64,000 nucleotides of DNA, from contig CP060227.1 of NCBI GenBank assembly GCA_023898525.1, positions 557,634 to 621,633 of the forward strand. Reading direction: 5' to 3'. The DNA comes from Candidatus Nomurabacteria bacterium (GTDB lineage: Bacteria; Patescibacteriota; Minisyncoccia; Phycocordibacterales; UBA918). The notes under the pieces were generated by a model, which saw only the letters and a program-made list of their open reading frames with translations, was not told where the DNA came from and ran no database searches. Each line of letters opens with the position of its first letter. Within the stretch, counting starts at the first letter, position 1. Shown one piece after another: positions 6,440 to 58,829 of the stretch. Position numbers and translations under genes: made by a program.

Positions 6440-6440
6440 G

Positions 6441-8054: not shown

Positions 8055-9486
8055 GGTGAGAAAGTGCTTCGGTAAGCACAGCGCGAATTTTTTCGAGAGT
8101 AACTTCTACTTCTTTTTTCTTAGTTCGGTAGACTTCAAGTAATTCTTCTGGAGACTCAAGCACATCAACTGGGGTACGTGGATTCTTGATATCGAGGTTG
8201 TAGTTTCGCTTTACAATCTCATCAATAGATACTTTCCATGCACGATCATTCTCTTCTCGGTTATTCCACCATTCTTTCACTGGCTCAAATTCTTCAACCC
8301 TGATTGGATTGGTCATTGAATATGCTTTCTGACCTTCTGGAAGTGAGTGTTCGTAATACCAGACCTCTTTTGTAGGTTCGCCTTTAGTAAAGAACAGGAG
8401 GTTTGTGGCAATACTTGTGTATGGAGCAAACACGCTCTTTGGAAGACGGACAATGGTGTGAAGGTTGCACTCCTCAAGCAGTTGCTTCTTTAGAGCAGTT
8501 TTCATCCCTTCACCAAAGAGAGTACCGTCTGGCAAAACGATACCTGAGCGACCATGTTTCTTGAGCAAGCGGAGAATAAGTACAAGGAAGAGGTCAGCGG
8601 TTTCTCTGGTTTGGAATTCCTTCGGAAAATTGGCTTCGATACCTGGCTCTTCAGTACCACCAAAAGGGGGATTTGTAACAACACAATCTACTTTGTCAGC
8701 ATCGGTGTAGTCTCGAATCGGTTTCTCGAGGGTATTGCCACGACGCATAGTAACCGGCTCTTCAATACCATGGAGCATCATATTGGTCAGAAGGAGCATA
8801 TACGGTAACGGTTTCTTCTCCACGCCGTGAATACTTTGCTGAATCTTCTGCTCGTCCTTTACCGACTTCACTTGCTTACGCATGTGTTCAAGCGAATGAA
8901 CCAAGAAGCCACCGGTACCCGATGCAGGGTCTAATACTGACTCGCCAACCTTTGGATCAACCATTTCAACAATGAACTGCGTCACAGCTCGTGGCGTATA
9001 CATCTCTCCAAAGTTTCCGGCACTTTGAAGACTCTTCAGAAGACGCTCGTATACATCATTGAAAACGTGACGATCTTTTGAGGCATTGAAGTCAATCTCG
9101 TTAATCTTGTTTATCACTTGCTTTAACAGTGTCCCTTTACGCATGAAGTTATAGACATCTTGAAACGCCATACGGGTAAGGTCGGTACGTTGGTTGCCAT
9201 TCTTTGGTAAATCGCGAAGCCCAGGAAGCAGATCATTGTTTACAAACTCAATGAGCTTGTCTCCCGTCATTCCATCCATAGGAGCAGCCCACGTGCGCCA
9301 TTGATACTTCACAGGAAGAGTCGGGACATATTTCTCCTTACGAATTTCCAGTGCTCGATCCTCATCATCGAGGATCTTTAGAAAGATCAGCCACACCATC
9401 TGCGATAGCCGAGTCGCATCACCGTCAACACCAATATCTTGGCGCATGATGTCCTGGATGGCTTTAATTGTTGCGGGAGTAAGCAT
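8041..9486 (-). CDS. hsdM: Type I R-M N6-adenine DNA methyltransferase HsdM.
   Basis: It has the HsdM N-terminal domain. The SAM-binding motif is VLDPASGTGGFL. The catalytic motif IV is VVTNPPFGG (NPPF). Confidence 0.95.
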   Translation of the reverse strand: MLTPATIKAIQDIMRQDIGVDGDATRLSQMVWLIFLKILDDEDRALEIRKEKYVPTLPVKYQWRTWAAPMDGMTGDKLIEFVNNDLLPGLRDLPKNGNQRTDLTRMAFQDVYNFMRKGTLLKQVINKINEIDFNASKDRHVFNDVYERLLKSLQSAGNFGEMYTPRAVTQFIVEMVDPKVGESVLDPASGTGGFLVHSLEHMRKQVKSVKDEQKIQQSIHGVEKKPLPYMLLLTNMMLHGIEEPVTMRRGNTLEKPIRDYTDADKVDCVVTNPPFGGTEEPGIEANFPKEFQTRETADLFLVLILRLLKKHGRSGIVLPDGTLFGEGMKTALKKQLLEECNLHTIVRLPKSVFAPYTSIATNLLFFTKGEPTKEVWYYEHSLPEGQKAYSMTNPIRVEEFEPVKEWWNNREENDRAWKVSIDEIVKRNYNLDIKNPRTPVDVLESPEELLEVYRTKKKEVEVTLEKIRAVLTEALSHHDTK

Positions 9487-9489
9487 AGA

Positions 9490-11856
9490 TTATTGTGCGT
9501 ACATTACATCGAGTAATTCATCGACCGTTTGGAAGTATCCTTCTTTTCCACCAAAGAGCGATACGAGTTCGTAATCAGTACCCATTGAACGAAGTGGTTC
9601 TAGAGTAAGAATTCGAACGCTCTCAATGTCTTTAAGAGTAACGTCAGCATATTTCTCAAGAAGTGCTTCAAGCACTTCTCGTGCCTTTCCGCTGTACTTA
9701 TCAAGATAGTTTGAGCGGCGTACCGCTTCAATACGCTCATTCTTCTTCATCATCTTCTTATCATAGGCAACGTGCATGATGAGATCAAACAAATCAAAAT
9801 CTGCTCCAACTTGCTTCTGAAGCTCCTCGAGCGGAATACCACTCGCATCAATTTTATCAATAATAGCTTGGCGACGTTCTGCTGATTGCCAGGCACTGAA
9901 GAAACTTTCGAGTGTTGGGTAGTGCGTGAGAATATTCTTTTTGGTGAAATCAGTAAGCGATTGTGTGAGGAGTTTGCCGTCGGGACCAAGGTATTGCACT
10001 TGTTCCTTTACCACTGCGTACGGCACGCCGCTGAGTTTGTAGACTGGTGGACGTTCTGCAACCTCTTCTGAACCTTGTGAAATAACAGCGTCTACAAGTT
10101 CGTCTTCTTCAAACTTTTCCTCGACTGACATGTCTTCTGGATCTTCCGCTTCTATAGTTTCAGCAATATCTTCATCTTCTCCAACTTCAAATACACGCTC
10201 AGCGACACCGTCAAAGGCAGGGTCAGCAAAAAGTTTTGTGGCACCTTGAAAGTCCATAATCGTGAACCACATCTTTCCTTTGTCTTCACGAACTCGGGTA
10301 CCTCGACCAATAATCTGCTTAAACTCAGTCATGCTCTCAATCGGCTTGTCGAGCACAATGAGTTTGCAGGTTTGAGCATCCACACCAGTTGAGAGAAGTT
10401 GCGAGGTAGTAACAATTGTTGGGAATCGCTCTTCTGGGTCAATGAAGCGGTCAAGTTGATTCTTTCCTTCTTCATCGTCACCTGTAATACGCATGACGTA
10501 ACGAATATCCTCTCGGGCTCGTTCACCAGCTACATTTACTAACGCACTACGCATACGTTCAGCGTGAGCAGTTGTACGGCAAAAAACAATTGTCTTTGCA
10601 TATGGGTCTTCTACTGCTTCAAGGTACTCAAATATCTTTTCTGCAATTACTTTCTCTCGCTGTGGGAAGATAACGGATTTATTAATATCGCGAAGTTCAT
10701 AGAGTCGATCTTCTACTGGATTCCCATTATCATCTACGGTACCTGGCACAGGGCGCCAGCCAGTCACATCGTTATCGAGTAATACCCGCATAACCTTGTA
10801 TGGTGCCAAGAATCCATCATCAATACCTTGCTTGAGTGAGTAGGTATAGATAGGGTCACCAAAATAGTGTGAGGTGCTGGTGTCAGCGGTTTCTTTTGGT
10901 GTAGCGGTAAGACCAAGGTGTGTTGCTCCAGTAAAGTGCTCAAGAATTTCTCGCCACTCGCTATTTTCTGAAGCGCTACCTCGGTGACACTCATCAATAA
11001 CAATAAGATCGAAGAAATCTGAAGGTAATCGTTTGAAGAGTTTCTCTTCCTCTTCCTTGCCACTCATTGCTTGGTAGAGACTAAGGAATATTTCATGAGA
11101 CATCAGTGACCCTAGATCATTGAAGTTCTGTCGTGAAATCTTAGTTAGTGCATCACCAAAGTGCTTGAGGTCATTAATGCGTGCTTGGTCAACAAGAATA
11201 TTTCTATCAGCTAAAAACAATACTCGCTTTGCGCTACCAGACTTCCAAAGACGCCAAATAATCTGTCCAGCAGTGTACGTCTTTCCAGTACCAGTAGCCA
11301 TAACGAGTAAAATGCGTTTCTGACCACGCGCTACAGCCTCAACTGCTCGATCAATAGCAATACGTTGGAAATATCGTGGCGATTTGTTTGGGTCGTCAGA
11401 ATATAGTGGGGTTTCAATTACATTCTTAACAGCTTCAGCTTCACCCTTCCATGTGAGGTATCGAGCATACAATTCATCTGGTGATGGAAATTGGTCAGGA
11501 GTGAGAGTAGTCTCAGTCTCTGGTGAGAGACCAGTTCGGTCATGAAAAAGGAAACCCTCACCATTTGCCGAGAAAACGAATGGGACATCGAGCGCTGATG
11601 CGTACCCAAGAGCCTGCTGCATTCCTGCACCAAGATCTTTGGCAGCCGACTTTGCCTCCACAAGAGCAATTGGAAGATTTGGTCGGTACTCAAGAAGAAA
11701 GTCTACTTTCTTCTTTTCTCCTCGTTTAGCAACACGTCCGCTAACGTGAATGCGGCCCATCGTGTATGGGTACTCCTCTCGTATCTGGTGATCATTCCAT
11801 CCAGCACCTACTATGGTAGGGCGAATGAGACGATTTCTTGTTTCTTCTTCATTCAT
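9490..11856 (-). CDS. hsdR: Type I restriction enzyme R subunit HsdR.
   Basis: The N-terminus is a PD-(D/E)xK nuclease (VDFLL...VEAK). The SF2 helicase region carries Walker A (LLVMATGTGKTYTA), a DEAH box (IVIDECHRG) and motif VI (GRGTR). An HsdR C-terminal helical domain follows. At 788 aa it is shorter than many HsdR proteins, but all core domains are present. Confidence 0.9.
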   Translation of the reverse strand: MNEEETRNRLIRPTIVGAGWNDHQIREEYPYTMGRIHVSGRVAKRGEKKKVDFLLEYRPNLPIALVEAKSAAKDLGAGMQQALGYASALDVPFVFSANGEGFLFHDRTGLSPETETTLTPDQFPSPDELYARYLTWKGEAEAVKNVIETPLYSDDPNKSPRYFQRIAIDRAVEAVARGQKRILLVMATGTGKTYTAGQIIWRLWKSGSAKRVLFLADRNILVDQARINDLKHFGDALTKISRQNFNDLGSLMSHEIFLSLYQAMSGKEEEEKLFKRLPSDFFDLIVIDECHRGSASENSEWREILEHFTGATHLGLTATPKETADTSTSHYFGDPIYTYSLKQGIDDGFLAPYKVMRVLLDNDVTGWRPVPGTVDDNGNPVEDRLYELRDINKSVIFPQREKVIAEKIFEYLEAVEDPYAKTIVFCRTTAHAERMRSALVNVAGERAREDIRYVMRITGDDEEGKNQLDRFIDPEERFPTIVTTSQLLSTGVDAQTCKLIVLDKPIESMTEFKQIIGRGTRVREDKGKMWFTIMDFQGATKLFADPAFDGVAERVFEVGEDEDIAETIEAEDPEDMSVEEKFEEDELVDAVISQGSEEVAERPPVYKLSGVPYAVVKEQVQYLGPDGKLLTQSLTDFTKKNILTHYPTLESFFSAWQSAERRQAIIDKIDASGIPLEELQKQVGADFDLFDLIMHVAYDKKMMKKNERIEAVRRSNYLDKYSGKAREVLEALLEKYADVTLKDIESVRILTLEPLRSMGTDYELVSLFGGKEGYFQTVDELLDVMYAQ

Positions 11857-23946: not shown

Positions 23947-23972
23947 AAATACAGAGGATTTTTCAAAAAACC

Positions 23973-23999
23973 ACTAGACACTTGTGTCTAGTGGAGAAA
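23973..23999. terminator. Bidirectional terminator ccactagacac-ttg-tgtctagtgg.
   Basis: A perfect 11-bp stem. Confidence 0.7.
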
Positions 24000-24023: not shown

Positions 24024-24893
24024 CTATAATAAAGTCATAGCATCAACCGCATACCACTGACCAGTAACACCGGTCTGTTGTGGATTGAGCCATACACCTT
24101 CTATATCGTTGTATGTTTCAGTCTTGTATTTATCAAACTCTTCCTCCGGTTCTATCAACTCAACCGTCTTAAGGATTTTGGTGAAGAGAGCTTCGGTTTC
24201 TTCGACGTCAGCGGTTTGGGGAGGCAATAGTGAGATAAAAATATTTCGATAATTCTTAGGTTCTGCAACATAAGAATATTGAGCCTCTTGTTCAAAAAAA
24301 CCCCGATTCTCTCTATATGTAGACCAACCCTCCAAGAGATTTGTTTCCAAACATCCTGGTCTACTAGCTGGATTGTCACACCGAGACTTAAATCCAGTGT
24401 TGGGAAAGATATCGGCTTTATACACTACAGATAAGCGATAGCCAGATTTAACAATATATCCGCCATCCATAAACAAGGGTTCTTGCCTAGTTTTAAAATC
24501 ACTAGTTTCATAAACATCTTGAGTACTAAATAAATATTTACTCTGATATGGATGTGAGTACTTGTGTGTACTTGAACTGACATGAATAAACTCCATATCT
24601 CTCGGCACCCCAAATCTCACTGTGCCCGAAGAAATAATAAACTCCTCAAAGTCTTCAGGCAGTGGTGTGAGTTCACTGTATTTCTTTGGTGACACCTTAG
24701 GTATCATGTATTCTTCCTTTTCAGGATCTGTAGTGTAGGATTTATATTGAGTGGTGGTTGCTTGGTTTTGTGTACTATTGTTTGTTTGTTGGTTTTTAGT
24801 ATTGTCTGTTGTTTTTTCTTGGTCAAACAGCATAAATGCCAAGCTGGCTATAACCGCCAATGATATAAGGAAGATGATGTGGTTTTTGTTCAC
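24024..24893 (-). CDS. Membrane-anchored secreted protein, paralog A of a local family.
   Basis: It has an N-terminal TM segment (MNKNHIIFLISLAVIASLAFMLFDQEKT). The shared block is KSYTTDPEKEEYMIPKV.PKKYSELTPLPEDFEEFII.SGTVRFG.P.D. The shared C-terminus is PPQTAD.EETEALFT.ILKTVELIE, matching 25534..26274. The central region has diverged. Confidence 0.6.
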   Translation of the reverse strand: MNKNHIIFLISLAVIASLAFMLFDQEKTTDNTKNQQTNNSTQNQATTTQYKSYTTDPEKEEYMIPKVSPKKYSELTPLPEDFEEFIISSGTVRFGVPRDMEFIHVSSSTHKYSHPYQSKYLFSTQDVYETSDFKTRQEPLFMDGGYIVKSGYRLSVVYKADIFPNTGFKSRCDNPASRPGCLETNLLEGWSTYRENRGFFEQEAQYSYVAEPKNYRNIFISLLPPQTADVEETEALFTKILKTVELIEPEEEFDKYKTETYNDIEGVWLNPQQTGVTGQWYAVDAMTLL

Positions 24894-24932: not shown

Positions 24933-25463
24933 TTACTCAATAATACCTATATACTCGTAAGAACTATAACAAGCACCTACACCATGTCCACCCACCGGCT
25001 TTTTCTGAAACTGTAGAGATATAGGATCAACAACAGATGACTGTATTACCGCCTTATCTTTCTCCGGTATCTCATGCCAAGGAAGATTTAATAATACTCC
25101 ACCGGTCTCACTCAAGGAATACACTCCATTACCACGCTTAATACGATCAACAATTGACAGAACTTCTTCACCAAACGGTTCTTTAATTTCAATCATGTGA
25201 CATATGCCATTTTCATCAATACTTTTACTATATTCAAAATCTCTGTCTGGAACATTATAGTCAATTATCGTGTATGTTCCCGTAAACACAACTAGTCCAG
25301 AAATTGGTTTAGACTTCTCATCATCAATATTTATAAAGTCACTATCATGGGTATTTGTTGTATGTTCTTCAACTTCATTTAAAGTTATGTGATTAAAAAT
25401 AACAACAAATAATCCCATAATAATCACGATCACTATAATATAAGCTATATATACTTTATTCAT
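24933..25463 (-). CDS. Membrane-anchored hypothetical protein (176 aa).
   Basis: It has an N-terminal TM segment (YIAYIIVIVIIMGLFVVIF) and sits between the two paralogs. Confidence 0.45.
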   Translation of the reverse strand: MNKVYIAYIIVIVIIMGLFVVIFNHITLNEVEEHTTNTHDSDFINIDDEKSKPISGLVVFTGTYTIIDYNVPDRDFEYSKSIDENGICHMIEIKEPFGEEVLSIVDRIKRGNGVYSLSETGGVLLNLPWHEIPEKDKAVIQSSVVDPISLQFQKKPVGGHGVGACYSSYEYIGIIE

Positions 25464-25533
25464 AGTGAAAACCGTACCACAACAGTGTATAAAAAGAAAT
25501 CTCTAGATCGATTTTTTAAAAGAGAAGTTGGAC

Positions 25534-26274
25534 TTATTCTTTCACTACTTCTATCAGCTCCACTGTTTTAAGAATCTCGGTAAAGAGAGCTTCTGTTTCT
25601 TCAATGTCGGCGGTTTGGGGGGGATAGAGTGTCATCTCTAAACTACCGAATATTTTAGACTGTGCAATATATATATATTGTAGATTTTCTTCAAAATAAT
25701 TATCGTTTAGTCTGTAAGTGTACCAGTTATCTAGAAGATCGGTCTCATAACAAGTTTTACGATTTATAGCTAATAAACATCTAGAACCGTACCCTTTGTC
25801 TCCGTAACTTAAATTAAGTTGGACGAATAGCTGATATCCAGATGTAACCACGTAATCGTCTTCACCTTGAAGATCAGCGGCTATTATCTGGTTATAATCT
25901 TTGGTTTGATAATGATAAGTATTGTCACTAGAGCCAGTATTTACCAAACCTAAGTCTTTAGGTAACCCAAACCGCACGGTACCACTAGCAATAATAAACT
26001 CCTCAAAGTCTTCCGGTAGTGGAGTTAGTTCACTATACTTCTTTGGTTCTACCTTAGGTATCATGTATTCTTCCTTTTCAGGATCTGTAGTGTAGGATTT
26101 GTATTGAGTGGTGGTTGATATAGCTGTTTTATCATTAAGAATGTTGTTGGTTTTTTCTTGATCAAACAGTATAAAGGCCAGACCGGCGGTCACTGCCAAC
26201 ATAACGAGAAAGATGATGTGGTTTTTATTCATGATGGAAACCGTATCACAACAGTGTATAAAAAGAAACCCCAT
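25534..26274 (-). CDS. Membrane-anchored secreted protein, paralog B.
   Basis: It is conserved at the N- and C-termini with 24024..24893. The true start is probably MNKNHIIFLVMLAV (ATG near 26232). The upstream region (26224-26270) is near-identical to 25461-25504. Confidence 0.6.
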   Translation of the reverse strand: MGFLFIHCCDTVSIMNKNHIIFLVMLAVTAGLAFILFDQEKTNNILNDKTAISTTTQYKSYTTDPEKEEYMIPKVEPKKYSELTPLPEDFEEFIIASGTVRFGLPKDLGLVNTGSSDNTYHYQTKDYNQIIAADLQGEDDYVVTSGYQLFVQLNLSYGDKGYGSRCLLAINRKTCYETDLLDNWYTYRLNDNYFEENLQYIYIAQSKIFGSLEMTLYPPQTADIEETEALFTEILKTVELIEVVKE

Positions 26275-26325
26275 AATCAGTTACCTGATTATGGGGTTTT
26301 TAAAGAACTACTTACCTGCGAAGAA

Positions 26326-29160
26326 CTATATCAGCTGGTCCATGTTATACCAAACTTGCTCATCCTGAAACCAAACACCAACAATACCGATGTAGGTTTC
26401 GTGACCATAAGGACTATCAACCGAAACACTGGCATCAGCATTTTCAGTGAAAGTAAAGTTACTGCGATGAGAGTTTGGCCCATGATAATCCACCTGATCA
26501 GGTCCACCTCCACCCACATAAATATCATCACCTAAGCTACCAAAAAAAGTATCGTGACCATCTCCACCGGCAAAAAGATCATTGCTGTCAGTACCGGTCA
26601 AGACCTCGTCGGAATTGGTACCCGGTACGATGTTATACAAACCATCACTGAAGACAATCCTTTCCACACCCTCCAAGATATCAACTCCGTAATCAATGTT
26701 GTATACGGAAATAACACCGTCAGTATGTAGCTGAGTATTAAACTCGGTTACAGGTTTGTTATAAGTGATGGTGTCAACTCCGTCGTCACCAAAGTAGTGA
26801 TTGTCACCGCTTTCACCGATGAAGTTATCGTCACCTTTGGTGCCGATAATTGGATAGACCGATATAGGTAACGGACCGATAAAATCAATGTTGCCTAGAC
26901 TGGTAGGTTGCAGATTGAGACCGTCGCCGACCGGCACATCACCCAGTCCGATTAAGTACACCGCCGGTATAGCAATACCACCTTCTTCAGGATCGTGGAT
27001 GTTGGTGGTGATTTCGTGCGGAACATCTTCAGCACCACTTTTGGTAACACTCTTGCTTCCTTCCCACTCAAAACCAGCACCACGATATGTATCCGTTCCA
27101 AAAGAAACATGGATATGCTTACCTTCCACAAATCCAGTAGCTCCCACAATCCCTAGAGGAGTACCTGCTTCCACATGAGCATCCTTCCAGTTGTCTGGAA
27201 ACTGAGCCGCAATAGAGCCGGTCTTGGCGTGAGCGTAGGTCATGTACACATCATGCTTTTCTCCGTTTATGGTAGCTTTTTGGTCAAGCAAGATGGTAAT
27301 TGAGTTACCCAGTTCTCCTGGCCCATTACCGGTAGTGTTGTCTATATAAGATACCACTTTACCGGAAGCTTGGGCGTAGAAGTACGGATCTACTCCAGGA
27401 GTTTGTAAATAGCCTCCCGTTAGATTGTAATCTAAGGAAACTTCTTGGTGACCAAAAGACGGTAATCCGGACGGAGTACTTTTCCCTTCAGTAATATGAC
27501 TAGTCATACCGTTTCCCCCATCACTCATACCTTGTACCACTTGCCAACGATGCCCATCAATAGCTAGTGAGTCAAATGGTTGCCCTATGACCACCTTACC
27601 ATCAACAGTATCGTTGATCCGAAGAGCAAGATCAGAAAAACCAGGTCTTTCAAGATCCTCCCTTGTCCACTCTACCGGCGGGGTATAAACGCCAAACTCC
27701 TGCTTATTAATTCTGATGCCTTTATTTACTTCGTTTTGCACAGAATCTAAAGCCGGCAATTCACCAACACTGGCATAAGCAGTACTAGCAGAAAACCAGC
27801 TAACCGCACTCAAAAAACTCTGCGAAAGCAAACCTCCCACCGCTTCCATAGTTTTACCCAAAGAGGAAAGTAGGTGGTTGTCACCCACAAAGTCAGCGGC
27901 AGAAGTAGTTCCCACATCTGCCTCCAGCTTATTAAAAGCCTCTGCATGCGTAGCTAAATCAGCTTTAGTGATAGCCGGTGTTATCTCCCACGTTGCGACA
28001 TCAATTATTTTTAACATCACCTTATCGTTAGCAAGATTGGCTCCTTGCACGTTACTGACTCCGAGTTCAAACAATTCCTCCGCCCAATCTTCAGAATCAG
28101 GGTTTTGGATGGTCTTTACCGGAATCGCTACTTTGGTTTGACCAGCCGGTATAGTGAAGCTTATGTCGATAAAGCCTTCATAGTCTCCACCAGCACCTAA
28201 TACATTAGCTTGATTGTACGTGCCTTTGTAGGTGGTGGCGGTAAAGGTCACATCATGACCGACCGCTTTATCCAACTCCGCGTAAGAGGTGGTAAAGTCA
28301 CCTTCATTGGTATCACCTCCGGCGTAGAGAGAAAGCGTAGGTAAGGTCTCCGCTACCAGTGTAGTGTTATACACCGTACCATAGGCTGTTCCGTCGGTAA
28401 TGACAAAATTATCATCATAAGAAAATAGTTTAACATCAATCCGTCGGTTATCGGTCTGACCATCATCAACTGTCTTAATATTGATTGTGACCGAAGTCTC
28501 ACCAGCCCTAATAACACCACTAACCCACCACGAACCATCAGCAATACTGGCGGTGGTGGTATATGGATTTACTTGCAAATAGACAAGCGTGTCATAGGGT
28601 ACCGGCTTTTCTGCCCCTACCACAAAACCAACACTACCACCTTCATTACCGGTGGTGTTATTTACCCACAAGCCAATCTGAGTCCGATCATCATCAACGA
28701 TACCAATACTAGTAATCGGAGAAAGAGTCTCGTGCTGTGAGCTAGCCACCACATGTGAATCTAGAGACAATTCTTGTACATCAGTTATTTCAACTGTAAG
28801 ACCTTCAAGTAAAGTACTTTCATCGATGGAGTCGTTTACGAGTTCGATTTTTATATCGAACTCAGTTTGACCACTAGCAAAATAATAGTACCCATCGACC
28901 AATGAGTCTGATTGTGGCTTTGTAACTATCCTGTAGTCACTACTAGTCAGCCCGTTCCAGTGGTACCAATCCAATTTAAACCAAGTGATTTGGTAAGGAT
29001 TTGTCGCCTCACCCACCGGTTCACGCTTGATGGTAAAAGTAATGGTTCCATCACTCTCATTATATAGAGCAAAGGTATTGTCACCATTTACCGGATTGTT
29101 GTTACGTTTAAAACCATACACAACAGGCATAATTGCCTCCTTATTTTTGGTTAATTTCAA
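26326..29160 (-). CDS. Large (944 aa) multidomain protein: N-terminal beta-rich repeat domains, a central M23 (LytM-type) metallopeptidase domain, and C-terminal RTX-type Ca-binding repeats. It has no N-terminal signal peptide.
   Basis: The M23 signature is HDVYMTYAH...GTPLGIVGATGFVEGKHIHVSF (HxxxD ... G-x-T-G-x-x-x-G-x-H-L/I-H-F). The C-terminal repeats (GDDNFIGESGDNHYFGDDGVDTI and LTGTDSNDLFAGGDGHDTFFGSLGDDIYVGGGGPDQV) are of the GGxGxDxL type. The N-terminus is hydrophilic. Confidence 0.7.
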   Translation of the reverse strand: MKLTKNKEAIMPVVYGFKRNNNPVNGDNTFALYNESDGTITFTIKREPVGEATNPYQITWFKLDWYHWNGLTSSDYRIVTKPQSDSLVDGYYYFASGQTEFDIKIELVNDSIDESTLLEGLTVEITDVQELSLDSHVVASSQHETLSPITSIGIVDDDRTQIGLWVNNTTGNEGGSVGFVVGAEKPVPYDTLVYLQVNPYTTTASIADGSWWVSGVIRAGETSVTINIKTVDDGQTDNRRIDVKLFSYDDNFVITDGTAYGTVYNTTLVAETLPTLSLYAGGDTNEGDFTTSYAELDKAVGHDVTFTATTYKGTYNQANVLGAGGDYEGFIDISFTIPAGQTKVAIPVKTIQNPDSEDWAEELFELGVSNVQGANLANDKVMLKIIDVATWEITPAITKADLATHAEAFNKLEADVGTTSAADFVGDNHLLSSLGKTMEAVGGLLSQSFLSAVSWFSASTAYASVGELPALDSVQNEVNKGIRINKQEFGVYTPPVEWTREDLERPGFSDLALRINDTVDGKVVIGQPFDSLAIDGHRWQVVQGMSDGGNGMTSHITEGKSTPSGLPSFGHQEVSLDYNLTGGYLQTPGVDPYFYAQASGKVVSYIDNTTGNGPGELGNSITILLDQKATINGEKHDVYMTYAHAKTGSIAAQFPDNWKDAHVEAGTPLGIVGATGFVEGKHIHVSFGTDTYRGAGFEWEGSKSVTKSGAEDVPHEITTNIHDPEEGGIAIPAVYLIGLGDVPVGDGLNLQPTSLGNIDFIGPLPISVYPIIGTKGDDNFIGESGDNHYFGDDGVDTITYNKPVTEFNTQLHTDGVISVYNIDYGVDILEGVERIVFSDGLYNIVPGTNSDEVLTGTDSNDLFAGGDGHDTFFGSLGDDIYVGGGGPDQVDYHGPNSHRSNFTFTENADASVSVDSPYGHETYIGIVGVWFQDEQVWYNMDQLI

Positions 29161-29339: not shown

Positions 29340-29368
29340 ATAAAAGTACTCGTGGTAAATTCACGAGT
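29340..29368. terminator. Hairpin aagtactcgtg-gtaaatt-cacgagtactt.
   Basis: A perfect 11-bp stem downstream of the 29388..29654 gene on the minus strand. Confidence 0.55.
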
Positions 29369-29387
29369 ACTTTATTTAACATTTTTA

Positions 29388-29654: not shown

Positions 29655-29674
29655 CTATTTTCCTTTCTTTTTGA

Positions 29675-31045
29675 TTGAAAAACCTGAGCTGTACAGGACT
29701 GGGAGTATTTATACATACAAATTATCTTTTGGCAAATACACCAATTACTCGTATACTATATAGTATGTCACGTATCATACTGTTATTGAAAAAGTTAATC
29801 CCGAAACCCTTATTAGACTTTATTTTACCGTACTATCACTACAGCCTCGCCTACCTAGCTGACCGTTGGTACAAACATCCATCTAAAGAAATTTTTGTAA
29901 TCGGAGTCACTGGCACCAAAGGAAAGTCCAGTGTAACCGAGCTTATGGCCCGCATCTTAGAAGCTAATGGTCACAAAGTTGCTTCGCTTTCAACTATTCA
30001 GTTTAAAATTGGTGACGACGTTGAGCGCAACCTTTTTAAAATGACGATGCCTGGTCGCTTTTTTGTCCAACGTTTCTTGCGACAGGCAGTAGAGGCTGGT
30101 TGTTCGCATGCAGTAATTGAAATTACCTCTGAGGGAGCTCGGCAGTTTCGTCATAACTTTTTAGAATTAAACGCACTTATTTTTACCAACCTCAGTCCTG
30201 AACATATTGAATCACACGGTTCGTTTGAAAAATACAAACAAGCCAAGTTATCAATTGCCAAACGAGTAGAAGATTCAATTAAACGACCTCGCTACATAGT
30301 CGCCAACATTGATGACGAACACGGTCAGGATTTTCTTAACTTTGATGTTGAGCAAAAACTTCCGTATAGCTTAGGTGATCTTTCCTTATACTCCCTACAC
30401 CGCGATAGTGTCAGTCTGGTTTTTGGCGACACCACCATTCGCGTGCCAATGATTGGTCTCTTTAATGTATACAATATATTAGCCGCTATTACTTTAGCCA
30501 AAAGTTTTGGTATATCTTATATGACCATCGACAAAGCCCTTCGCAATATTCCCAAGATTGCCGGACGAGTAGAAAAATTCACCAGTCCCAAAAATGCTAC
30601 AAAAAATGTCACTGCGATTGTCGACTACGCACACACCACCGACTCGCTGGAAAAGCTCTACCAAGCCTTTCCTGATACCACCAGAATCTGTGTTTTGGGC
30701 AATACCGGCGGCGGACGCGATACCTGGAAACGACCGGAGATGGGAGCAATTGCTGATAAGTATTGTGACCAGATTATCCTGACCAATGAAGACCCTTATG
30801 ACGAAAACCCACGCAGTATAGTAGACCAAATGGCTAAAGGTATCGAAAACAAAGATAAACTAGAAATAATTATGGATCGCCGAGAAGCGATTAGAGTGGC
30901 AATTGACAAGACTCCTAGCGGTGGTTATGTCATAGTGTCCGGCAAAGGCACCGACCCGTACATCATGGGACCAAATGGCACCAAGACGGTTTGGAGTGAC
31001 GCTGAAGTGGTACAAGAAGAGTTAGCTGAACTGGCTATAAATTAA
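29675..31045 (+). CDS. murE: Mur ligase: UDP-N-acetylmuramoyl-L-alanyl-D-glutamate--2,6-diaminopimelate (or L-Lys) ligase.
   Basis: The motifs GVTGTKGKSS (P-loop), TMPG and the catalytic domain match the MurE pattern. The true start is probably MSRIILLLKK (ATG near 29765). Confidence 0.8.
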   Translation: MKNLSCTGLGVFIHTNYLLANTPITRILYSMSRIILLLKKLIPKPLLDFILPYYHYSLAYLADRWYKHPSKEIFVIGVTGTKGKSSVTELMARILEANGHKVASLSTIQFKIGDDVERNLFKMTMPGRFFVQRFLRQAVEAGCSHAVIEITSEGARQFRHNFLELNALIFTNLSPEHIESHGSFEKYKQAKLSIAKRVEDSIKRPRYIVANIDDEHGQDFLNFDVEQKLPYSLGDLSLYSLHRDSVSLVFGDTTIRVPMIGLFNVYNILAAITLAKSFGISYMTIDKALRNIPKIAGRVEKFTSPKNATKNVTAIVDYAHTTDSLEKLYQAFPDTTRICVLGNTGGGRDTWKRPEMGAIADKYCDQIILTNEDPYDENPRSIVDQMAKGIENKDKLEIIMDRREAIRVAIDKTPSGGYVIVSGKGTDPYIMGPNGTKTVWSDAEVVQEELAELAIN

Positions 31046-32606
31046 GCGCTCCGATTTGCCAATCTTTATCTTCTTTAATTATTTCTGGAATAACTTTCTT
31101 GCCCCCTGCAGTATACAGTGCCCCTTCCCCCATATTGCCAGCACTAATAATTGACACTCGACTCCAGACCGCCTGGATCTTGAGCATATTATCTATTTCA
31201 GAACGAAGAATTTTTGAGTCATGAAACCAAGCATGAGAAAACGGATGAGCAACAAAGGGGACATTTTCTCTCCCTTGTACCGCCTGTCTTACCCGCACCG
31301 GATCCACGACACCGTAACAAAATAATATTCCCGGAATATCAGCTGAAAAATCTACCTGAGAAGCTTGTGGACCGGGTTTGAAATACGACCGCTTATCAAT
31401 TCGAGCCAGAACGTCAGTCTGCCCAAATAGTCGCAAAAAACCGGTATAGAGATAGGGTAAGAATTCACCTTGTGGAGTTAGGTACTGCTTGTCAGCATAC
31501 CAACTGGTTTTATTTTTACCGTCATAAATAATAGATCTGACCGTAGTAAGCTTTTCGCTACTCAATTTGGCTGTACTAGTGAAGACCACAACCGTTTCTG
31601 GGTCAGAATAGTTAAAACGAAATAAATTATAAGCTGCTTTAGGGGTAAGGTTATGAGGATTTAGTCCAACCCCTTCTGGTAAAACCAAATAATCAGGCTT
31701 GGTTTCCAAAGCCGCCGCCACTGCTTTAGAGACAGCAGCAAACTCATATTCTTGCTGCTCTAAAGAGTCACGATACCCGCCACCAAACTTAGTATTTATA
31801 ATAGCTACTGTTTTATCTTCAGCTGACTCAACTTTTAACCAATTAAGGTGAGCCGTTGCCCCGAAACCAATCACTGTAAAAGCCAAGGTGTAGTAGAAAA
31901 ACATCTTTGACTGTGAGTGATAAATAAACCAAACCAGTCCCCCGACCGTCGCCGCCAGTAGTGACAGAACATAAACACCACCAAACTGCGCAAGCAAGAT
32001 AAGACCACTATGCTCGCCCAAAAGATAGCCGATATGACCTAAGCTGTAGCCTGCGTTGATCGAGCCCCCCGGACCATAAGTAAGAATTGAAAACATAAAG
32101 GCTCCGAGCCATTCACTTAAAACCAAGATAAACGGTAGGCCAATCAAAAAAACTTTGATTGGATGTTTATTTTTCAAATACCACAAGCCGGCTCCAGCCA
32201 ATAAACCACCAAAGCCAATGACCAAAGAAACAATCATCCAATACAAACCAATAATAATTAATTCAATTCTTCCCAAACTGATTTCACTAATCAACAAAGG
32301 GTAAGCGCTCCAATACATGGAAGTAGCAAACAAAGCCTTGATGGTAAAAGTTATCAAGCTACCAAGTAAGGCCGACTTTAAAGTTTCTGTCCGACTGACC
32401 GCTACCAAAAAAACGAGAACACCTATAAATACCGTTACCCAAAGCGTCGGTACAACAAACCCGATTCCCAACAAAACCCCACTAACTATGTATAAAAATA
32501 ATGGTGAACCTGGACTCATCCTATACATGATACAACACAATACCGGCTGTAACAGAAACATTAAGAGATTCCTTCCGGCCAAGCATCGGTAATTCCAAAA
32601 CCACAT
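31035..32606 (-). CDS. lnt: Apolipoprotein N-acyltransferase-like protein (polytopic membrane domain plus C-terminal CN-hydrolase domain).
   Basis: It has eight or more TM segments followed by a nitrilase-superfamily domain with DYLVLPEG (catalytic Glu) and GILFCYGVV (catalytic Cys). The true start is probably an internal Met (MYRMSPG...), which avoids overlap with the SpoU gene. Confidence 0.55.
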   Translation of the reverse strand: MWFWNYRCLAGRNLLMFLLQPVLCCIMYRMSPGSPLFLYIVSGVLLGIGFVVPTLWVTVFIGVLVFLVAVSRTETLKSALLGSLITFTIKALFATSMYWSAYPLLISEISLGRIELIIIGLYWMIVSLVIGFGGLLAGAGLWYLKNKHPIKVFLIGLPFILVLSEWLGAFMFSILTYGPGGSINAGYSLGHIGYLLGEHSGLILLAQFGGVYVLSLLAATVGGLVWFIYHSQSKMFFYYTLAFTVIGFGATAHLNWLKVESAEDKTVAIINTKFGGGYRDSLEQQEYEFAAVSKAVAAALETKPDYLVLPEGVGLNPHNLTPKAAYNLFRFNYSDPETVVVFTSTAKLSSEKLTTVRSIIYDGKNKTSWYADKQYLTPQGEFLPYLYTGFLRLFGQTDVLARIDKRSYFKPGPQASQVDFSADIPGILFCYGVVDPVRVRQAVQGRENVPFVAHPFSHAWFHDSKILRSEIDNMLKIQAVWSRVSIISAGNMGEGALYTAGGKKVIPEIIKEDKDWQIGALNL

Positions 32607-39226: not shown

Positions 39227-40960
39227 ATGATTAAGTTTAACGATCAGTCCTCCAACACTCGCATTGCTGACCTAAGAAAAAGTGAAGAAGAGAAATTAGT
39301 GCAAATTTTGGCACCCCAACGGGGCTACGATTATATAAACCTGCACGGCTACACCATAAACCCGGAAGCGGTAGCTTTATACCCTGAAAAAAAAGCGCGC
39401 GCTGCCAATTTAGTTATTTTTGACTCAACTCACGACCTACTTTCAGTAGCAGTCAAAAACCCAAGCGATCCAGTTACTGAACAAGCTTTAGCAGAAATTC
39501 AAAACAACCGCCAAAACATCCAAGTATTTATGTGTTCCACTGGAAGCCTAGAACACGCCTGGGAACGTTACGCTGATCTAGTAAAAACCTCAGCTCGTAA
39601 AAAGGGAGTGTTCGATATTGATACCAATGACATTGCCGCCTATATGAGTCATATAAAAAATAAAGAAGATGCAGCGACAGAGCTCAAGAACATTTCCACC
39701 ATCAATAACTCAAAACGAGTAACCGAAACAATTGAAATGATGTTTGCCGGAGCCATTAGTCTTTACGCTTCAGATATTCACATTGAGCCGGAAGAAAATG
39801 TAATTAGAGTTCGCTACCGCCTTGACGGTGTACTTCACGACATCTTTGATATTGACCGCTACATCTATGAAAGACTGATGTCTAGATTAAAGTTACTAGC
39901 CGGTATGACCCTGAACAAACGGCAAGAAGCGCAAGATGGGCGCTTCACTTTCGTGGTAATAGACCGCGAACTAGAAATTCGTGTCTCGGTCATTCCTGGT
40001 GCCTCCGGCGAATCGATGGTTATGCGTCTTCTTGACCCAAGTGTGGCGACTTTTAGAATTGAAAATATTGACCTCAATCCAATCATCCGAAAAGTTGTAG
40101 ATGACGAATTAAAAAAACCAAATGGATTAATTATCACTACCGGTCCAACCGGCTCTGGAAAAACCACCGCTCTTTATACTTTTCTTAAAGAAACCCACAA
40201 GGAAGGCGTAAAGATTATCACTATTGAAAATCCGGTGGAATATAAACTTGAAGGAATTGTCCAAACGCAAATCGGTGATGAATACACCTTTGCTTCCGGA
40301 CTACGAGCAATCTTACGTCAAGACCCCGACATCATCATGATTGGTGAGATTCGCGATCATGAAGTAGCCGAAACCGCAATACATGCCGCCCAGACCGGTC
40401 ACCTGGTTTTCTCCACCCTTCACACCAACAGTGCTGTGGGGGGCTTCCCTCGCCTACTAGACTTAGGAATTGATGCCCGAATTATCAGCAGCTCAGTTAG
40501 TCTCATGATGGGACAAAGATTGATGCGAAAACTTTGTAACGACTGCAAGCAACAGTACGAGGCCCCACCAGAGGAAATTAGGGTTGTAAAAGATATACTA
40601 AGTCAGCACCCAGGTAAACCGACCGTTCCAGAGCCATTAATACTATTTAAAGCGGTAGGTTGTACTGCTTGTGGTGGCACCGGTTTTAAAGGACGAATGG
40701 GTATTTTTGAAGCCATCCGAATGGATGAGAAAGTGGAAGAAGTGATAATTCGCGACCCGCGTGAACACGCTATTTTAGAAGCAGCTGCCCCGCAAGGAAT
40801 ACCAACCATGGTGGAAGACGGGGTGGAAAAAGTAGTACGAGGAATTACCTCACTAGCTGAACTAGAAAGAGTTGTGGTAATGCCTAAACCAAAATCTGAC
40901 CTAGTACCAGAAACAGAAATGGGTAGCGATGACTTATTTTTAGCTCACACTATAGCCTAA
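39227..40960 (+). CDS. pilB: Type IV pilus / type II secretion assembly ATPase (PilB/GspE family).
   Basis: It has a T2SSE N-terminal domain. Walker A is TGPTGSGKTT. The Asp and His boxes are IMIGEIRD and LVFSTLHTNSA. The C-terminal tetracysteine zinc motif is CNDC...CTACGGTG. Confidence 0.9.
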   Translation: MIKFNDQSSNTRIADLRKSEEEKLVQILAPQRGYDYINLHGYTINPEAVALYPEKKARAANLVIFDSTHDLLSVAVKNPSDPVTEQALAEIQNNRQNIQVFMCSTGSLEHAWERYADLVKTSARKKGVFDIDTNDIAAYMSHIKNKEDAATELKNISTINNSKRVTETIEMMFAGAISLYASDIHIEPEENVIRVRYRLDGVLHDIFDIDRYIYERLMSRLKLLAGMTLNKRQEAQDGRFTFVVIDRELEIRVSVIPGASGESMVMRLLDPSVATFRIENIDLNPIIRKVVDDELKKPNGLIITTGPTGSGKTTALYTFLKETHKEGVKIITIENPVEYKLEGIVQTQIGDEYTFASGLRAILRQDPDIIMIGEIRDHEVAETAIHAAQTGHLVFSTLHTNSAVGGFPRLLDLGIDARIISSSVSLMMGQRLMRKLCNDCKQQYEAPPEEIRVVKDILSQHPGKPTVPEPLILFKAVGCTACGGTGFKGRMGIFEAIRMDEKVEEVIIRDPREHAILEAAAPQGIPTMVEDGVEKVVRGITSLAELERVVVMPKPKSDLVPETEMGSDDLFLAHTIA

Positions 40961-47155: not shown

Positions 47156-48253
47156 CTAACGATTCATCGGCATCACCAAATACCTTAAGGTATTGTCTGA
47201 CACACCATTTATCACGAGTGGTCGACCAATACCAGCAAAATGCATAACAATACTGTCATCAGAGATATGAGACAATGGCTCTATTAAATATTGCTGATTG
47301 AAGTTTAAGGATAGTTCTTCACCTTCAATTACAGCCTTAACAGTATCAGTAATATGCCCTACCTCGTTATTTTGTGAAGAAACAACAATATTACCATCAG
47401 TTAAAGACAGCGAAACTTGATGGAATTTATTTAAAAACACAGAAGTTTTCTTAAAAGCATTTAGGAGTTCACTTTTTAGCACCGTAACATGTGTAATGTA
47501 CTCTTTCGGTATTATCTGTTCATAATCTGGAAAAGACCCTGACACCAACCGAGAGGTTACGTATACCCCCTCAGAAACAAAATCCAAAGCACACTGGTTA
47601 TCGGTCACTGTTAAAACCGGATCATCTTCCAATAAATCACAAATACGAGCCAATTCAATCGCATTCTTTTGTGGCACCAAAAACGAGTGATCAAGCACCA
47701 CCCCTTTTTGCGGCACTCGCTTTTCCATTAAGCGAAAAGAATCGGTGGATACAAAAGTTAAAGAGTGTTCCCTTTTTTGCTGAACATAAACACTACCTAA
47801 CTCAGGCTTTATAGAAGACTGTGAAGCAGCAAAGGCGGTAGTTTTTATACCCGAAGCAAAAAGAGGTCTATTAACCTTCACTCCTCCACCCTCAAGGTGT
47901 CTTATAGTTGGAAATTCCTCGAAAGGAATTGACTTAATAGAAGTATTAGTTTGCTTTGATTCAATCAATAATACACCATCTTCGTCACGAAGGGTTATTT
48001 CTGATTGATTAATATACTGAATACTTTGCAGTAGAGTTGTCATCGGTACCGCTATTGTCCCAATTTCATTTATTTTACCTGGAATAGTAACTTCGATACT
48101 CAACTCCAGATTAGTAGCCTTGATGGATATGGTATCTGCCGTTGCATTAATTAAAGCACACTGCAAAACAGGTAGAGTCACATGCTTAGTGCTGATACGA
48201 CTGATGAGTTCCAGAGTTTTAATTAGTTGTGGATGAGGGGTTATTATTTCCAT
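47156..48253 (-). CDS. dnaN: DNA polymerase III beta subunit (sliding clamp).
   Basis: It is 365 aa with a three-domain clamp pattern. It lies downstream of dnaA. Confidence 0.9.
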   Translation of the reverse strand: MEIITPHPQLIKTLELISRISTKHVTLPVLQCALINATADTISIKATNLELSIEVTIPGKINEIGTIAVPMTTLLQSIQYINQSEITLRDEDGVLLIESKQTNTSIKSIPFEEFPTIRHLEGGGVKVNRPLFASGIKTTAFAASQSSIKPELGSVYVQQKREHSLTFVSTDSFRLMEKRVPQKGVVLDHSFLVPQKNAIELARICDLLEDDPVLTVTDNQCALDFVSEGVYVTSRLVSGSFPDYEQIIPKEYITHVTVLKSELLNAFKKTSVFLNKFHQVSLSLTDGNIVVSSQNNEVGHITDTVKAVIEGEELSLNFNQQYLIEPLSHISDDSIVMHFAGIGRPLVINGVSDNTLRYLVMPMNR

Positions 48254-50808: not shown

Positions 50809-51537
50809 ATGAGTTATATTTGGCATACATTTTTTTTCGACCCTGTTTACAACGGGTTAATATTTTTTATTGACATTATTCCTGGAGGTGATGTTGGGGT
50901 GGCGATTATCGCTACGGTGGCGGTAGTTAAGTTTATTTTGTTACCACTTTCTATCAAAGCGGCTAAAACGCAAAAAATAATGCGGGAAATTGAACCTAAG
51001 TTGCGAGAAATAAAAGAGAAGCACAAAGACAATAAAGAAGAACAAGCTAGGGCGATGATGGAAATTTATCGCGATGCTGGTATGAATCCATTTGCTAGTT
51101 TGTTTTTGGTTTTTCTGCAAATTCCGATCATTATTGCCCTTTACTTTTCGGTTTATAGTGGCGGCGGGGTAGCTTTACCGGAAATTAACACCGCTCTACT
51201 CTACTCTTTTGTGTCTACTCCCAGTTTGGTTGATATGAATTTCCTAGGCATGATTGATATATCTGGTAAGAGTGTACTATTGGCTGCTTTAGCGGGTGTT
51301 ACCCAATACTATCAGGTTAAACTGGCGATGCCTCAAATGGCCCCACGAGATCCTAATAAGGCTCCTGACATGAAAGAGGATATTATGCGCAATATGCAGC
51401 TACAAATGCGCTATGTTATGCCGGTCATTATTTTTGTAGTATCTTACGTTATATCAGCAGCGATTGCTCTTTACTTCTTTGTTAGCAATGTGGCAGCTAT
51501 CTTACAAGAATTACATATAAAAAAGCATCATCGGTAA
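50809..51537 (+). CDS. yidC: Membrane protein insertase YidC (short Gram-positive/Oxa1-like form).
   Basis: LLPLSIKAAKTQKIMREIEPKLREIKEKHKDNKEEQARAMMEIYRDAGMNP is the hallmark YidC C1-loop region. It has five TM segments. Confidence 0.85.
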   Translation: MSYIWHTFFFDPVYNGLIFFIDIIPGGDVGVAIIATVAVVKFILLPLSIKAAKTQKIMREIEPKLREIKEKHKDNKEEQARAMMEIYRDAGMNPFASLFLVFLQIPIIIALYFSVYSGGGVALPEINTALLYSFVSTPSLVDMNFLGMIDISGKSVLLAALAGVTQYYQVKLAMPQMAPRDPNKAPDMKEDIMRNMQLQMRYVMPVIIFVVSYVISAAIALYFFVSNVAAILQELHIKKHHR

Positions 51538-53530: not shown

Positions 53531-53539
53531 ACACTATAC

Positions 53540-54499: not shown

Positions 54500-54546
54500 G
54501 GTTATTATAATAACAAACTATAGGCAAAAAAAAGCATCTTTAGACA

Positions 54547-55329: not shown

Positions 55330-55347
55330 AGCTTTATTCTAACAGGT

Positions 55348-57141: not shown

Positions 57142-57147
57142 AGTGTT

Positions 57148-57789: not shown

Positions 57790-57790
57790 A

Positions 57791-58243: not shown

Positions 58244-58286
58244 TTTATATGAAAAAAGCAGTGTTGGTTTTGTGTATAGATGTTAA

Positions 58287-58325
58287 GACAAACACTCTGC
58301 GCCTACGGCGCAGAGTGTTTGTTGT
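58287..58325. terminator. A perfect 16-bp hairpin inside the T4SS operon, between the 166-aa gene and the PrgI-like gene.
   Basis: gacaaacactctgcgcc-tacg-gcgcagagtgtttgttg. On the transcribed (minus) strand the T-run is weak. It could be an attenuator, a partial terminator or an RNA-processing site. Confidence 0.4.
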
Positions 58326-58826: not shown

Positions 58827-58829
58827 ATT

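Follow-up and report, generated by a model that had tools for sequence, protein, structure and literature searches.

Little is known of the means by which the ultra-small bacteria of the candidate phyla radiation (CPR; Patescibacteria) prey on other cells, adhere to them or draw nutrients from them, and none of their secreted effectors has a defined export route. A locus of Candidatus Nomurabacteria raises the question of whether such an effector can be recognised from its genes and, if so, how it would leave the cell. The locus lies in a 64,000-nucleotide stretch of contig CP060227.1 (positions 557,634 to 621,633), called the window throughout, and centres on one long open reading frame (ORF), for which an initial annotation made by a model from the sequence had proposed a 944-residue M23 peptidase with beta-rich N-terminal repeats, a canonical LytM/M23 active site and C-terminal RTX repeats, acting as a secreted cell-wall-attacking effector. 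Our analysis points, with a probability of about three in four, to an exported and probably active wall peptidase of predicted accessory function. The effector proposal is supported in part: a location outside the cytoplasm is very likely and the catalytic residues are conserved, while its two suggestions about the export route, by a type I secretion system (T1SS) or through a nearby type IV secretion system (T4SS), found no support.

RESULTS

An M23-type peptidase domain with conserved catalytic positions

The ORF at 26326..29160 on the minus strand is present, and its product has 944 residues if counted from the TTG codon at 29160. The true start is most likely the ATG at 29130, since an AAGGAGG element sits 5 nucleotides upstream of it and the NCBI call is identical; the resulting product of 934 rather than 944 residues is the NCBI protein H6779_02710, encoded by a metagenome-assembled genome (MAG) of Candidatus Nomurabacteria (Patescibacteria group, Parcubacteria group). 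Residue numbers below refer to the 934-residue form, to which 10 must be added for the longer one. The protein consists of three Calx-beta-like modules, a helical linker, a domain of M23/LytM fold and two C-terminal RTX modules (Table 1).

Taken by itself, the window protein scores below the Pfam gathering cut-off for M23 (PF01551; 20.4 bits, E=6e-4, cut-off 28.7), and among its homologs P0007 passes with 36.4 bits and the others reach 16.8-24. A profile of the family's catalytic region identified PF01551 in 120 of the 120 matches listed, and all 31 of its 31 matches in the PDB were M23 proteins, including TagE (the best, at 1e-10), Csd3, zoocin A, DipM, ShyA, lysostaphin and LytM. When a model of the domain, computed from a 39-sequence alignment (predicted template modelling score 0.71; predicted local distance difference test, pLDDT, 85-92 in the core), was compared with the PDB by Foldseek, the top 50 matches were all M23/LytM folds with E-values down to 4.5e-6, among them phi29 gp13, ShyA, Csd1/2, DipM, lysostaphin, LytM, LasA and EnvC. 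By profile and modelled fold, then, the protein can be placed in M23, though by itself it falls below the Pfam cut-off.

Three candidate active-site histidines, H634 (in TYAHAK), H672 and H674 (H672-I-H674), are invariant in 39 of 39 aligned sequences, and D567 is nearly so in that set and invariant in the first four family members. In the HxH motif of M23 enzymes the second histidine is a zinc ligand and the first is catalytic. The residues of the YAH and HIH motifs, on which the initial annotation had built its M23 assignment, are thus conserved on alignment, whereas its description of the active site as canonical does not extend to the first motif: the HxxxD zinc motif is absent, and a long-spaced SH(545)...D(567), or H-x21-D, stands in its place. 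In relatives the spacing between the histidine of this SH and the aspartate is x8 to x16. The first-motif histidine that is conserved throughout the family is H545 (in MTSH), which aligns with the motif 'QG..G.[ST]H.G...Y.[FV]DF' of a PF01551 subgroup (P0013-17, P0032, P0034, P0039), and P0010, with 'GMASHH-FGSTIETSLDW', links the window-type and the subgroup first motifs. As a conserved ligand H561 (H-x5-D) was rejected for the family as a whole, for the position is Ile in P0003 and L008, and the alignment likewise ruled out the HD inside KHDVY as an HxxxD motif. Because the loop is modelled at a pLDDT below 50, we leave the first ligand of the window enzyme between H545 and H561. Judged from these residues the domain is probably catalytically competent, and that all catalytic positions are occupied argues against a degenerate regulator of the LytM type.

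A separate observation concerns the metagenome proteins P0013-P0016, of the M23 subgroup with the long-spaced first motif ('FSH-x8-D'), which end in a conserved cysteine-rich tail, 'C(R/H)..G..C(R/L)..(E/Q)(L/F)P...........(D/E)DG.CRC.NG..I.T.LPCR.VCP', that was not recognised as a known domain.

Calcium-binding-type modules in a protein lacking a signal peptide

The N-terminal 380 residues, first described as beta-rich repeats, form three beta-sandwich modules that are Calx-beta-like. In the window protein the Pfam Calx-beta match (PF03160) is weak, at 12.3 bits against a cut-off of 27 (residues 90-126 of the 944-residue form); in the matching N-terminal region of the homologs, P0005 reaches 35.2 bits and P0007 25.5 bits. 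By fold, the region came closest to NCX1 and the CBD12 tandem of CALX1, as judged with a low-confidence full-length AlphaFold model (4-sequence alignment, mean pLDDT 44, below 50 in the centre) that was used for the N- and C-terminal modules only and in which module 2 is the best-predicted region. According to the alignment, module 3 is present in two copies in P0003 and missing from P0004. The linker that follows bears a conserved segment, 'LSSLGKTM..GLL....V.WF.GS.AYAS..ELP', seen in this family only; it is predicted to be partly helical and its hydrophobicity is too low for a transmembrane helix. Such a helix is unlikely anywhere else in the enzyme as well, since Kyte-Doolittle hydropathy averaged over 19 residues (KD-19) peaks for the whole protein at 1.44, at residues 727-745 (GGIAIPAVYLIGLGDVPVG, a conserved beta segment).

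Residues 757-934 comprise two modules, each made up of a short run of nonapeptides (three in the first, five in the second) and a beta-strand cap with W-Y-x-x-[DE]-x-L at its end. Their reading as RTX-type repeats is confirmed by Pfam HemolysinCabind (PF00353), which gives 33.6 bits over residues 855-889 (cut-off 23), and by a profile of 16 C-terminal modules of the family, whose match to the CyaA RTX domain (E=1.4e-12) takes in the block-ending 'GGxGxDxVxY'. Module 2 also matches lipase and CyaA chains in the PDB and is modelled at a pLDDT of 64-79. At the extreme C-terminus all members carry an acidic residue and then hydrophobic ones (DQLI, DALTLL, EDLLV, ENLV), and internal modules end likewise. 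Module 2 is the candidate determinant of Sec-independent export and calcium-dependent folding.

No N-terminal signal peptide was found, in agreement with the first reading of the sequence. KD-19 hydropathy is negative throughout the first 60 residues (-0.16 to -1.51), and 24 codons before the TTG the frame is closed by a stop codon, the intervening stretch not being hydrophobic; therefore, re-annotation of the start cannot create a signal peptide. The window protein has an isoelectric point (pI) of 4.23 and no cysteine, where about 5.8 would be expected in 934 residues at the window background of 0.62% (P~0.003 for zero, for the window protein alone). Nine full-length relatives share these properties, with a pI of 4.05-4.26 and no cysteine in the mature chain of any, and the pI of the family is lower than that of all 39 other window ORFs compared. 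The gene of one homolog, P0007, is complete, having a stop of its own and a further gene behind it; its product has a Sec signal peptide (MKSFIRFVCKIILVVTIPIGNAMA/A), lacks RTX modules, and aligns through its mature N-terminus with residue 1 of the signal-less relatives. Within one family, then, Sec signal and RTX tail occur as alternatives, a pattern that in this single case agrees with a role of the tail in determining export. Because of the calcium-binding RTX and Calx-beta modules, the pI of 4.2, the lack of cysteine in nine relatives and the Sec signal that replaces the RTX tail in P0007, we consider the enzyme very likely to be extracytoplasmic, which sustains the original claim of a secreted protein on features of the sequence.

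A rare accessory gene

The enzyme family is extremely rare. Searches returned four homologs among 5.8 billion protein clusters, and the central region alone, searched against 1.84 billion representatives, returned five proteins at E<=1e-10. Matches in genomes came from Patescibacteria MAGs only, a few MAGs of Parcubacteria type accounting for every homolog detected, and no relatives were found in phage genomes (INPHARED, tblastn), IMG/VR or JGI metagenome contigs; with no INPHARED or IMG/VR match, a phage or virus origin of the enzyme was rejected. Composition gave no signal of a recent horizontal transfer, the GC content at third codon positions (GC3) of the enzyme gene, 0.395, being ordinary for the window (mean 0.368 +/- 0.041).

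Loci L010 and L009 provide a natural comparison, as their flanks are 99.6% identical and L010 carries a deletion of about 3.8 kb (L010 9186..11185 versus L009 8909..15738). The deletion removes a divergently oriented partner gene of family B, described below, together with 80% of the enzyme gene from its 5' side, Calx-beta and M23 parts included; what L010 keeps is a decaying 242-residue RTX-module ORF (92% identity) and one intact gene in which partner families A and B are fused (98.5%). The strain can thus do without the enzyme, and it has retained the partner. Together with the rarity of the family, the existence of this near-identical strain without the enzyme supports the view that the gene is accessory and not housekeeping.

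Two MAGs with close relatives of the enzyme, those of L007 and L009, are labelled 'uncultured Candidatus Saccharibacteria'. One such relative is 76% identical and shares the Mur-ligase/SpoU synteny of the Nomurabacteria window, which suggests that these labels are imprecise.

Conserved partner genes downstream of the enzyme

Two to four small ORFs lie downstream of the enzyme gene in every locus, on its strand; their products are anchored in the membrane at the N-terminus and expose a domain with two cysteines on the outside. These genes, which the initial annotation had passed over, are the most telling part of the context. A gene of family A or B accompanies the enzyme in six of six loci, and in five it comes next, in the same orientation; in L008 it is the second downstream gene, after an unclassified 345-residue ORF. 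Family A includes d1 and d3 of the window and genes in L003 and L002, family B is represented in L002, L005 and L008 and by P0136, and families C and D are also present. L009 has two tandem genes in which A is fused to B. Among 5.8 billion clusters there were six A/B proteins, of which five lie on enzyme-carrying contigs and the sixth comes from L010, the locus with the enzyme deletion. The partner proteins had no match in Pfam, NCBIfam or the PDB.

The third partner gene of the window, d3, combines a family A paralog with a tail that corresponds to the last ~35 codons plus the downstream flank of a P0004-type enzyme gene and is unlike the tail of the window enzyme. At the DNA level, its 3' region agrees over nucleotides 1-84 with the end of the L003 A gene (3' side, 89% identity) and over nucleotides 100-212 with that of the L005 enzyme gene (3' side, 79% identity, E=1e-22). 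Read from these identities, d3 is a recombination or deletion chimera, and a second enzyme allele would therefore once have been present at the locus or have recombined with it. The second partner gene, d2, is nearly identical in L003 and missing from the other loci. Its GC3 of 0.237 is about 3 standard deviations under the window mean, making it the only atypical gene of those compared, and it may be a recently acquired cassette in the partner array.

Proposed function and points against it

We propose that the gene product would be an extracellular, calcium-dependent M23 zinc endopeptidase that cuts peptidoglycan peptides. It would be synthesised without a signal peptide as a very acidic, cysteine-free chain, kept unfolded in the low-calcium cytoplasm by its RTX modules, which would also drive Sec-independent export. 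The route could plausibly be an exporter composed of an ATP-binding cassette (ABC) protein and a membrane fusion protein (MFP) encoded elsewhere in the genome, as no outer-membrane component would be needed in a monoderm-type cell. Outside, the RTX modules would fold on binding calcium, and the three Calx-beta-like modules may give calcium-dependent binding or reach. We picture the enzyme as an accessory tool or weapon directed against the wall of another cell, a host or a competitor, rather than as a housekeeping autolysin. The anchored partners of families A and B would most likely protect the producer's own wall in the manner of immunity proteins, or alternatively dock the enzyme at the surface. 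For this account in full, with an extracellular M23 enzyme, a Sec-independent route and immunity-type partners, we see even odds. An improbable extension of it would make the RTX-like modules the signal of an undescribed Sec-independent pathway of Patescibacteria, be it an ABC/MFP 'monoderm T1SS' or the essential chromosomal T4SS; were it true, the enzyme would be the first identifiable cargo of that pathway, and A and B a new immunity family for a wall-cutting effector of the contact zone in episymbiosis.

Several findings weigh against the proposed account. The loop of the first zinc ligand is modelled poorly enough that H545 and H561 are both candidates. RTX scores of most homologs fall below the Pfam cut-off, and the variant with a Sec signal is a single case, P0007. 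Whereas classical RTX genes are as a rule linked to their T1SS, the enzyme gene had an ABC/MFP exporter within about 10 kb in none of six independent loci (the window and five others). A conserved terminator-like hairpin parts the enzyme gene from the partner genes; the intergenic region of about 110 nucleotides between enzyme and d1 that contains it is about 95% identical to that of L003, as compared with 76% overall for the enzymes, and termination, attenuation or mRNA stabilisation are possible functions of the hairpin. Immunity genes often carry their own promoters. Finally, families A and B each occur with both M23 sequence types and show no co-variation, unlike typical toxin-immunity pairs.

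Immunity or docking

For the role of the partners, docking is the main alternative to immunity. The enzyme would then be a surface-displayed adhesin-enzyme, held at the surface by the partners and remodelling peptidoglycan at cell-cell contact, with neither a free toxin nor immunity to it. Large RTX adhesins typically contain several Calx-beta and RTX modules, the module-profile matches included the chain of a 'large adhesion protein', and the partners are anchored with their domains outside; the lack of co-variation with M23 type and the enzyme-type C-terminal tail of d3 also fit docking. However, the d3 tail is accounted for by the recombination junction, and a similarity between the N-terminus of partner B and the C-terminal tail of the enzyme in a MAFFT alignment proved to be chance (hhalign probability 0.3%, E=0.2, 7 columns). 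The single case of L010, where a partner was kept after loss of the enzyme, would by analogy represent an orphan-immunity pattern and fits immunity better. We therefore judge the docking explanation unlikely and keep immunity as the preferred role of the partners.

Export route

According to the literature, a classical RTX protein depends on a dedicated T1SS (ABC and MFP, with or without an outer-membrane protein), the genes of which are usually linked; RTX proteins have no N-terminal signal, an uncleaved C-terminal secretion signal, an acidic composition and few or no cysteines; and RTX genes are found in a few monoderms, as in Streptococcus sanguinis, where one is accompanied by HlyB- and HlyD-like genes but not by TolC (PMC3034196). 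On T1SS or RTX in CPR we found nothing specific in the literature. As had been noted, the 64-kb window contains no visible T1SS genes: Pfam scans of 40 of its ORFs of at least 150 residues revealed no ABC, MFP or TolC gene, the unscanned ORFs all being shorter than 275 residues. Nor was there an ABC or MFP gene within about 10 kb of the enzyme gene in L002, L003/L004, L005, L008 or L009/L011. The inference of type I secretion from RTX repeats took over a rule from diderm proteobacteria and finds no support in these six loci, and an unlinked ABC/MFP exporter encoded elsewhere would be the most economical export route.

T4SS is a possible route. In the corresponding explanation the C-terminal modules would be read by the coupling ATPase, the enzyme would be delivered on contact to the wall of a host or prey cell and the downstream proteins would be immunity proteins. 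The window does encode a VirB4/TraG-type ATPase with unannotated neighbours (51598..60833), and its neighbourhood of dnaA, dnaN and yidC matches the published placement of the Patescibacteria T4SS, a chromosomal monoderm-type system beside replication genes that occurs in 2,417 of 3,035 Patescibacteria genomes and seems specialised for a task other than conjugation, some of its components being essential for epibiotic growth (PMC12102498). The enzyme, without a Sec signal and with a conserved C-terminal module, and the immunity-like genes behind it would suit such a system. Such an arrangement would resemble the pairs of effector (X-Tfe) and immunity protein (X-Tfi) of the bacteria-killing T4SS of Xanthomonas. 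Against T4SS delivery, the system occurs in about 80% of Patescibacteria genomes and the enzyme family is extremely rare, so that neither co-occurrence nor the distance of 26 kb is informative, and the nearby T4SS loses its value as a hint about export (PMC12102498). In addition, at other loci the enzyme gene lies in unrelated neighbourhoods, the Sec-signal variant P0007 would be released outside and not injected, and calcium-dependent folding of an acidic, cysteine-free chain is a mark of ABC-type export, not of T4SS substrates. Taken together, we find T4SS delivery quite unlikely and prefer the ABC/MFP route.

As to the T4SS region itself, the same-strand ORFs around the ATPase (51598..60833, minus strand) encode products of 249, 397, 319, 260, 213 and 667 residues and have no Pfam match among those scanned; they are candidate VirB3/6/8-like components. 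The run adjoins yidC (50809..51537), dnaA (48628..50034) and dnaN (47156..48253).

Own wall or no catalysis

Could the enzyme instead serve the cell's own wall? As a housekeeping autolysin or division factor comparable to LytM, ShyA or MepM it would be expected to have the M23 fold and intact catalytic residues that it has, and a Mur ligase adjoins its gene in the window and in L003/L004, the window also encoding a class A penicillin-binding protein. The Mur-ligase neighbourhood is, however, not kept in L002, L005, L008 or L009, very few genomes carry the family although billions of proteins were searched, L010 has lost the enzyme while being nearly identical to L009, and the protein has no signal peptide, with the ordinary CPR M23 proteins listed (P0093, P0110) showing architectures of the LysM type. 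All this renders a housekeeping role very unlikely. Least probable of all is a catalytically dead scaffold or regulator of the LytM type, like EnvC, NlpD and DipM, or a pure adhesin, for although the Pfam M23 score is below the cut-off, HxxxD is not canonical, the first-ligand loop is poorly modelled and DipM and EnvC appear among the structural matches, H634, H672 and H674 are invariant across family and outgroups with D567 nearly so in the 39-sequence set, the conserved SH histidine fits the motif of an active-type M23 subgroup, and degenerate LytM factors such as EnvC and NlpD lack these catalytic residues.

Relation to known enzymes and effector systems

The window enzyme has its fold, its HxH motif and its catalytic histidine in common with M23 bacteriolysins and endopeptidases such as lysostaphin, zoocin A, LasA/beta-lytic protease, LytM, ShyA and Csd3. 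The bacteriolysins among these are extracellular and cut peptide bridges of peptidoglycan, and lysostaphin and zoocin A are antagonistic enzymes whose producers have self-protection. Whereas M23 bacteriolysins have a Sec signal and SH3b, LysM or other wall-targeting domains, the window enzyme has no signal and carries Calx-beta and RTX modules, and its first zinc motif is H-x21-D (or H-x5-D via H561) in place of the HxxxD of those enzymes. It is not specifically LasA-like, LasA ranking about 42nd among the fold matches.

With RTX enzymes exported by T1SS (serralysins, lipases of Pseudomonas and Serratia, AlgE epimerases with R-modules) it shares the N-terminal enzyme, the C-terminal beta-roll and a signal-less, acidic, cysteine-free chain. 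Those enzymes belong to diderm hosts and have linked ABC/MFP/TolC genes, in contrast to the window enzyme, which comes from a monoderm-type Patescibacterium and had no linked exporter in six loci; and the RTX modules of the family, unlike theirs, are short (3-5 repeats), occur in 2-4 copies and have a cap each. The closest RTX precedent is the uncharacterised RTX/HlyB/HlyD operon of S. sanguinis (PMC3034196).

In gene order the locus resembles effector-immunity pairs (the Bdellovibrio DD-endopeptidases with Bd3460, X-Tfe/X-Tfi, and Tae/Tai of the type VI secretion system), in which a wall hydrolase is likewise followed by small genes for envelope proteins, and L010, with a partner and no enzyme, resembles the orphan immunity gene of such pairs. 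No sequence or fold relationship was found between the partners and known immunity families, and the partners differ from such pairs in not co-varying with M23 type. The Bdellovibrio-type analogy has already been proposed for a CPR predator, Vampirococcus: in the available part of the description of Vampirococcus lugosii, its peptidoglycan hydrolases are predicted to be secreted and proposed to degrade the host wall, the same role in CPR as suggested here, and that part contains neither the RTX/Calx-beta architecture nor conserved partners (PMC8080830).

The enzyme is thus probably a tool or weapon of accessory nature that is exported, assembled from known parts but unusual in their combination and in the host. 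What sets it apart is a signal-less, RTX-tailed enzyme in a monoderm-type CPR bacterium with no linked exporter, the long-spaced zinc motif, Calx-beta modules in the place of SH3b or LysM, and new partner families. The family offers a testable candidate effector, a predicted and probably active wall-cutter with a tail of Sec-independent type in a cell without an outer membrane, and it brings natural controls in the homolog P0007, which has a Sec signal instead of the tail, and in the deletion strain L010. It may serve as a handle on RTX-driven ABC export in monoderm-type bacteria or on the cargo of the Patescibacteria T4SS, and the partner genes may be a new family for immunity or docking. Even as an ordinary secreted lysin the enzyme would add an unusual domain combination and the long-spaced zinc motif to the M23 family.

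Features of the locus and other observations in the window

The positions of the features are collected in Table 1. An Rfam scan of window positions 23000-34000 found a tRNA-Lys only.

Table 1. Positions of the enzyme gene, its domains, the partner genes and secretion-related genes in the 64,000-nucleotide window
Feature	Position	Strand	Basis or remark
Enzyme coding sequence, 934 aa, stop codon included	26326..29130	-	ORF list, Shine-Dalgarno, NCBI H6779_02710, upstream in-frame stop
Shine-Dalgarno-like AAGGAGG, spacer of 5 nt to ATG 29130	29136..29142	-	Upstream sequence
Terminator-like hairpin behind upstream 88-aa membrane-protein gene	29343..29373	-	Sets upstream limit of enzyme transcription unit
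Calx-beta-like module 1, residues 1-148, IVDDD at end	28687..29130	-	Weak Pfam, homolog scores, model beta strands, fold matches
Calx-beta-like module 2, residues 150-256	28363..28683	-	pLDDT about 67-84, kept in all homologs, fold matches
Calx-beta-like module 3, residues 262-378	27997..28347	-	Alignment, model strands
Family-specific linker, residues 385-495	27646..27978	-	Invariant columns, predicted helices 389-405 and 425-443
M23/LytM-fold metallopeptidase domain, residues 498-735	26926..27639	-	Pfam, profile and PDB matches, domain model, Foldseek, motif alignment
Candidate first zinc ligand H545	27496-27498	-	Family-wide SH His
Alternative first ligand H561, lineage-specific	27448-27450	-	Alignment
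Candidate active-site D567	27430-27432	-	Alignment
Candidate active-site H634	27229-27231	-	YAH motif
Candidate active-site H672	27115-27117	-	HxH motif
Candidate active-site H674	27109-27111	-	HxH motif
RTX module 1, residues 757-833	26632..26862	-	Nonapeptides GTKGDDNFI, GESGDNHYF, GDDGVDTIT and beta-strand cap ending VERIVFSDGLYN
RTX module 2, residues 834-934	26329..26631	-	Five nonapeptides and cap ending GVWFQDEQVWYNMDQLI at C-terminus
Terminator-like hairpin, 15-bp stem then T-run, between enzyme stop and d1	26266..26299	-	Identical in L003
Partner d1, family A, 232 aa from MNKNH start, N-terminal anchor, extracytoplasmic domain with two Cys	25534..26232	-	H6779_02705
Partner d2, family C, 176 aa, N-terminally anchored	24933..25463	-	Conserved in L003
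Partner d3, 289 aa, family A paralog fused in frame to enzyme-gene 3' end	24024..24893	-	H6779_02695
Terminator-like hairpin closing d1-d3 unit	23971..23994	-	
PilB/GspE-type ATPase (T2SSE and MshEN N-terminal domain)	39227..40960	+	Pfam; type IV pilus machinery, not T4SS
VirB4/TraG-type ATPase	55348..57141		Pfam

Two genes from the enzyme, at 31035..32606 on the minus strand, lies the gene of a 523-residue polytopic membrane protein whose sole match is to the apolipoprotein N-acyltransferase N-terminal domain (LNT_N, 28.5 bits), which is odd for a monoderm-type CPR genome. At 4214..11856 on the minus strand, the window contains a complete type I restriction-modification operon encoding HsdR (788 residues), HsdM (481 residues) and HsdS (537 residues); it is followed by the gene of a 741-residue AAA_13 ATPase, and together these genes resemble a defence island.

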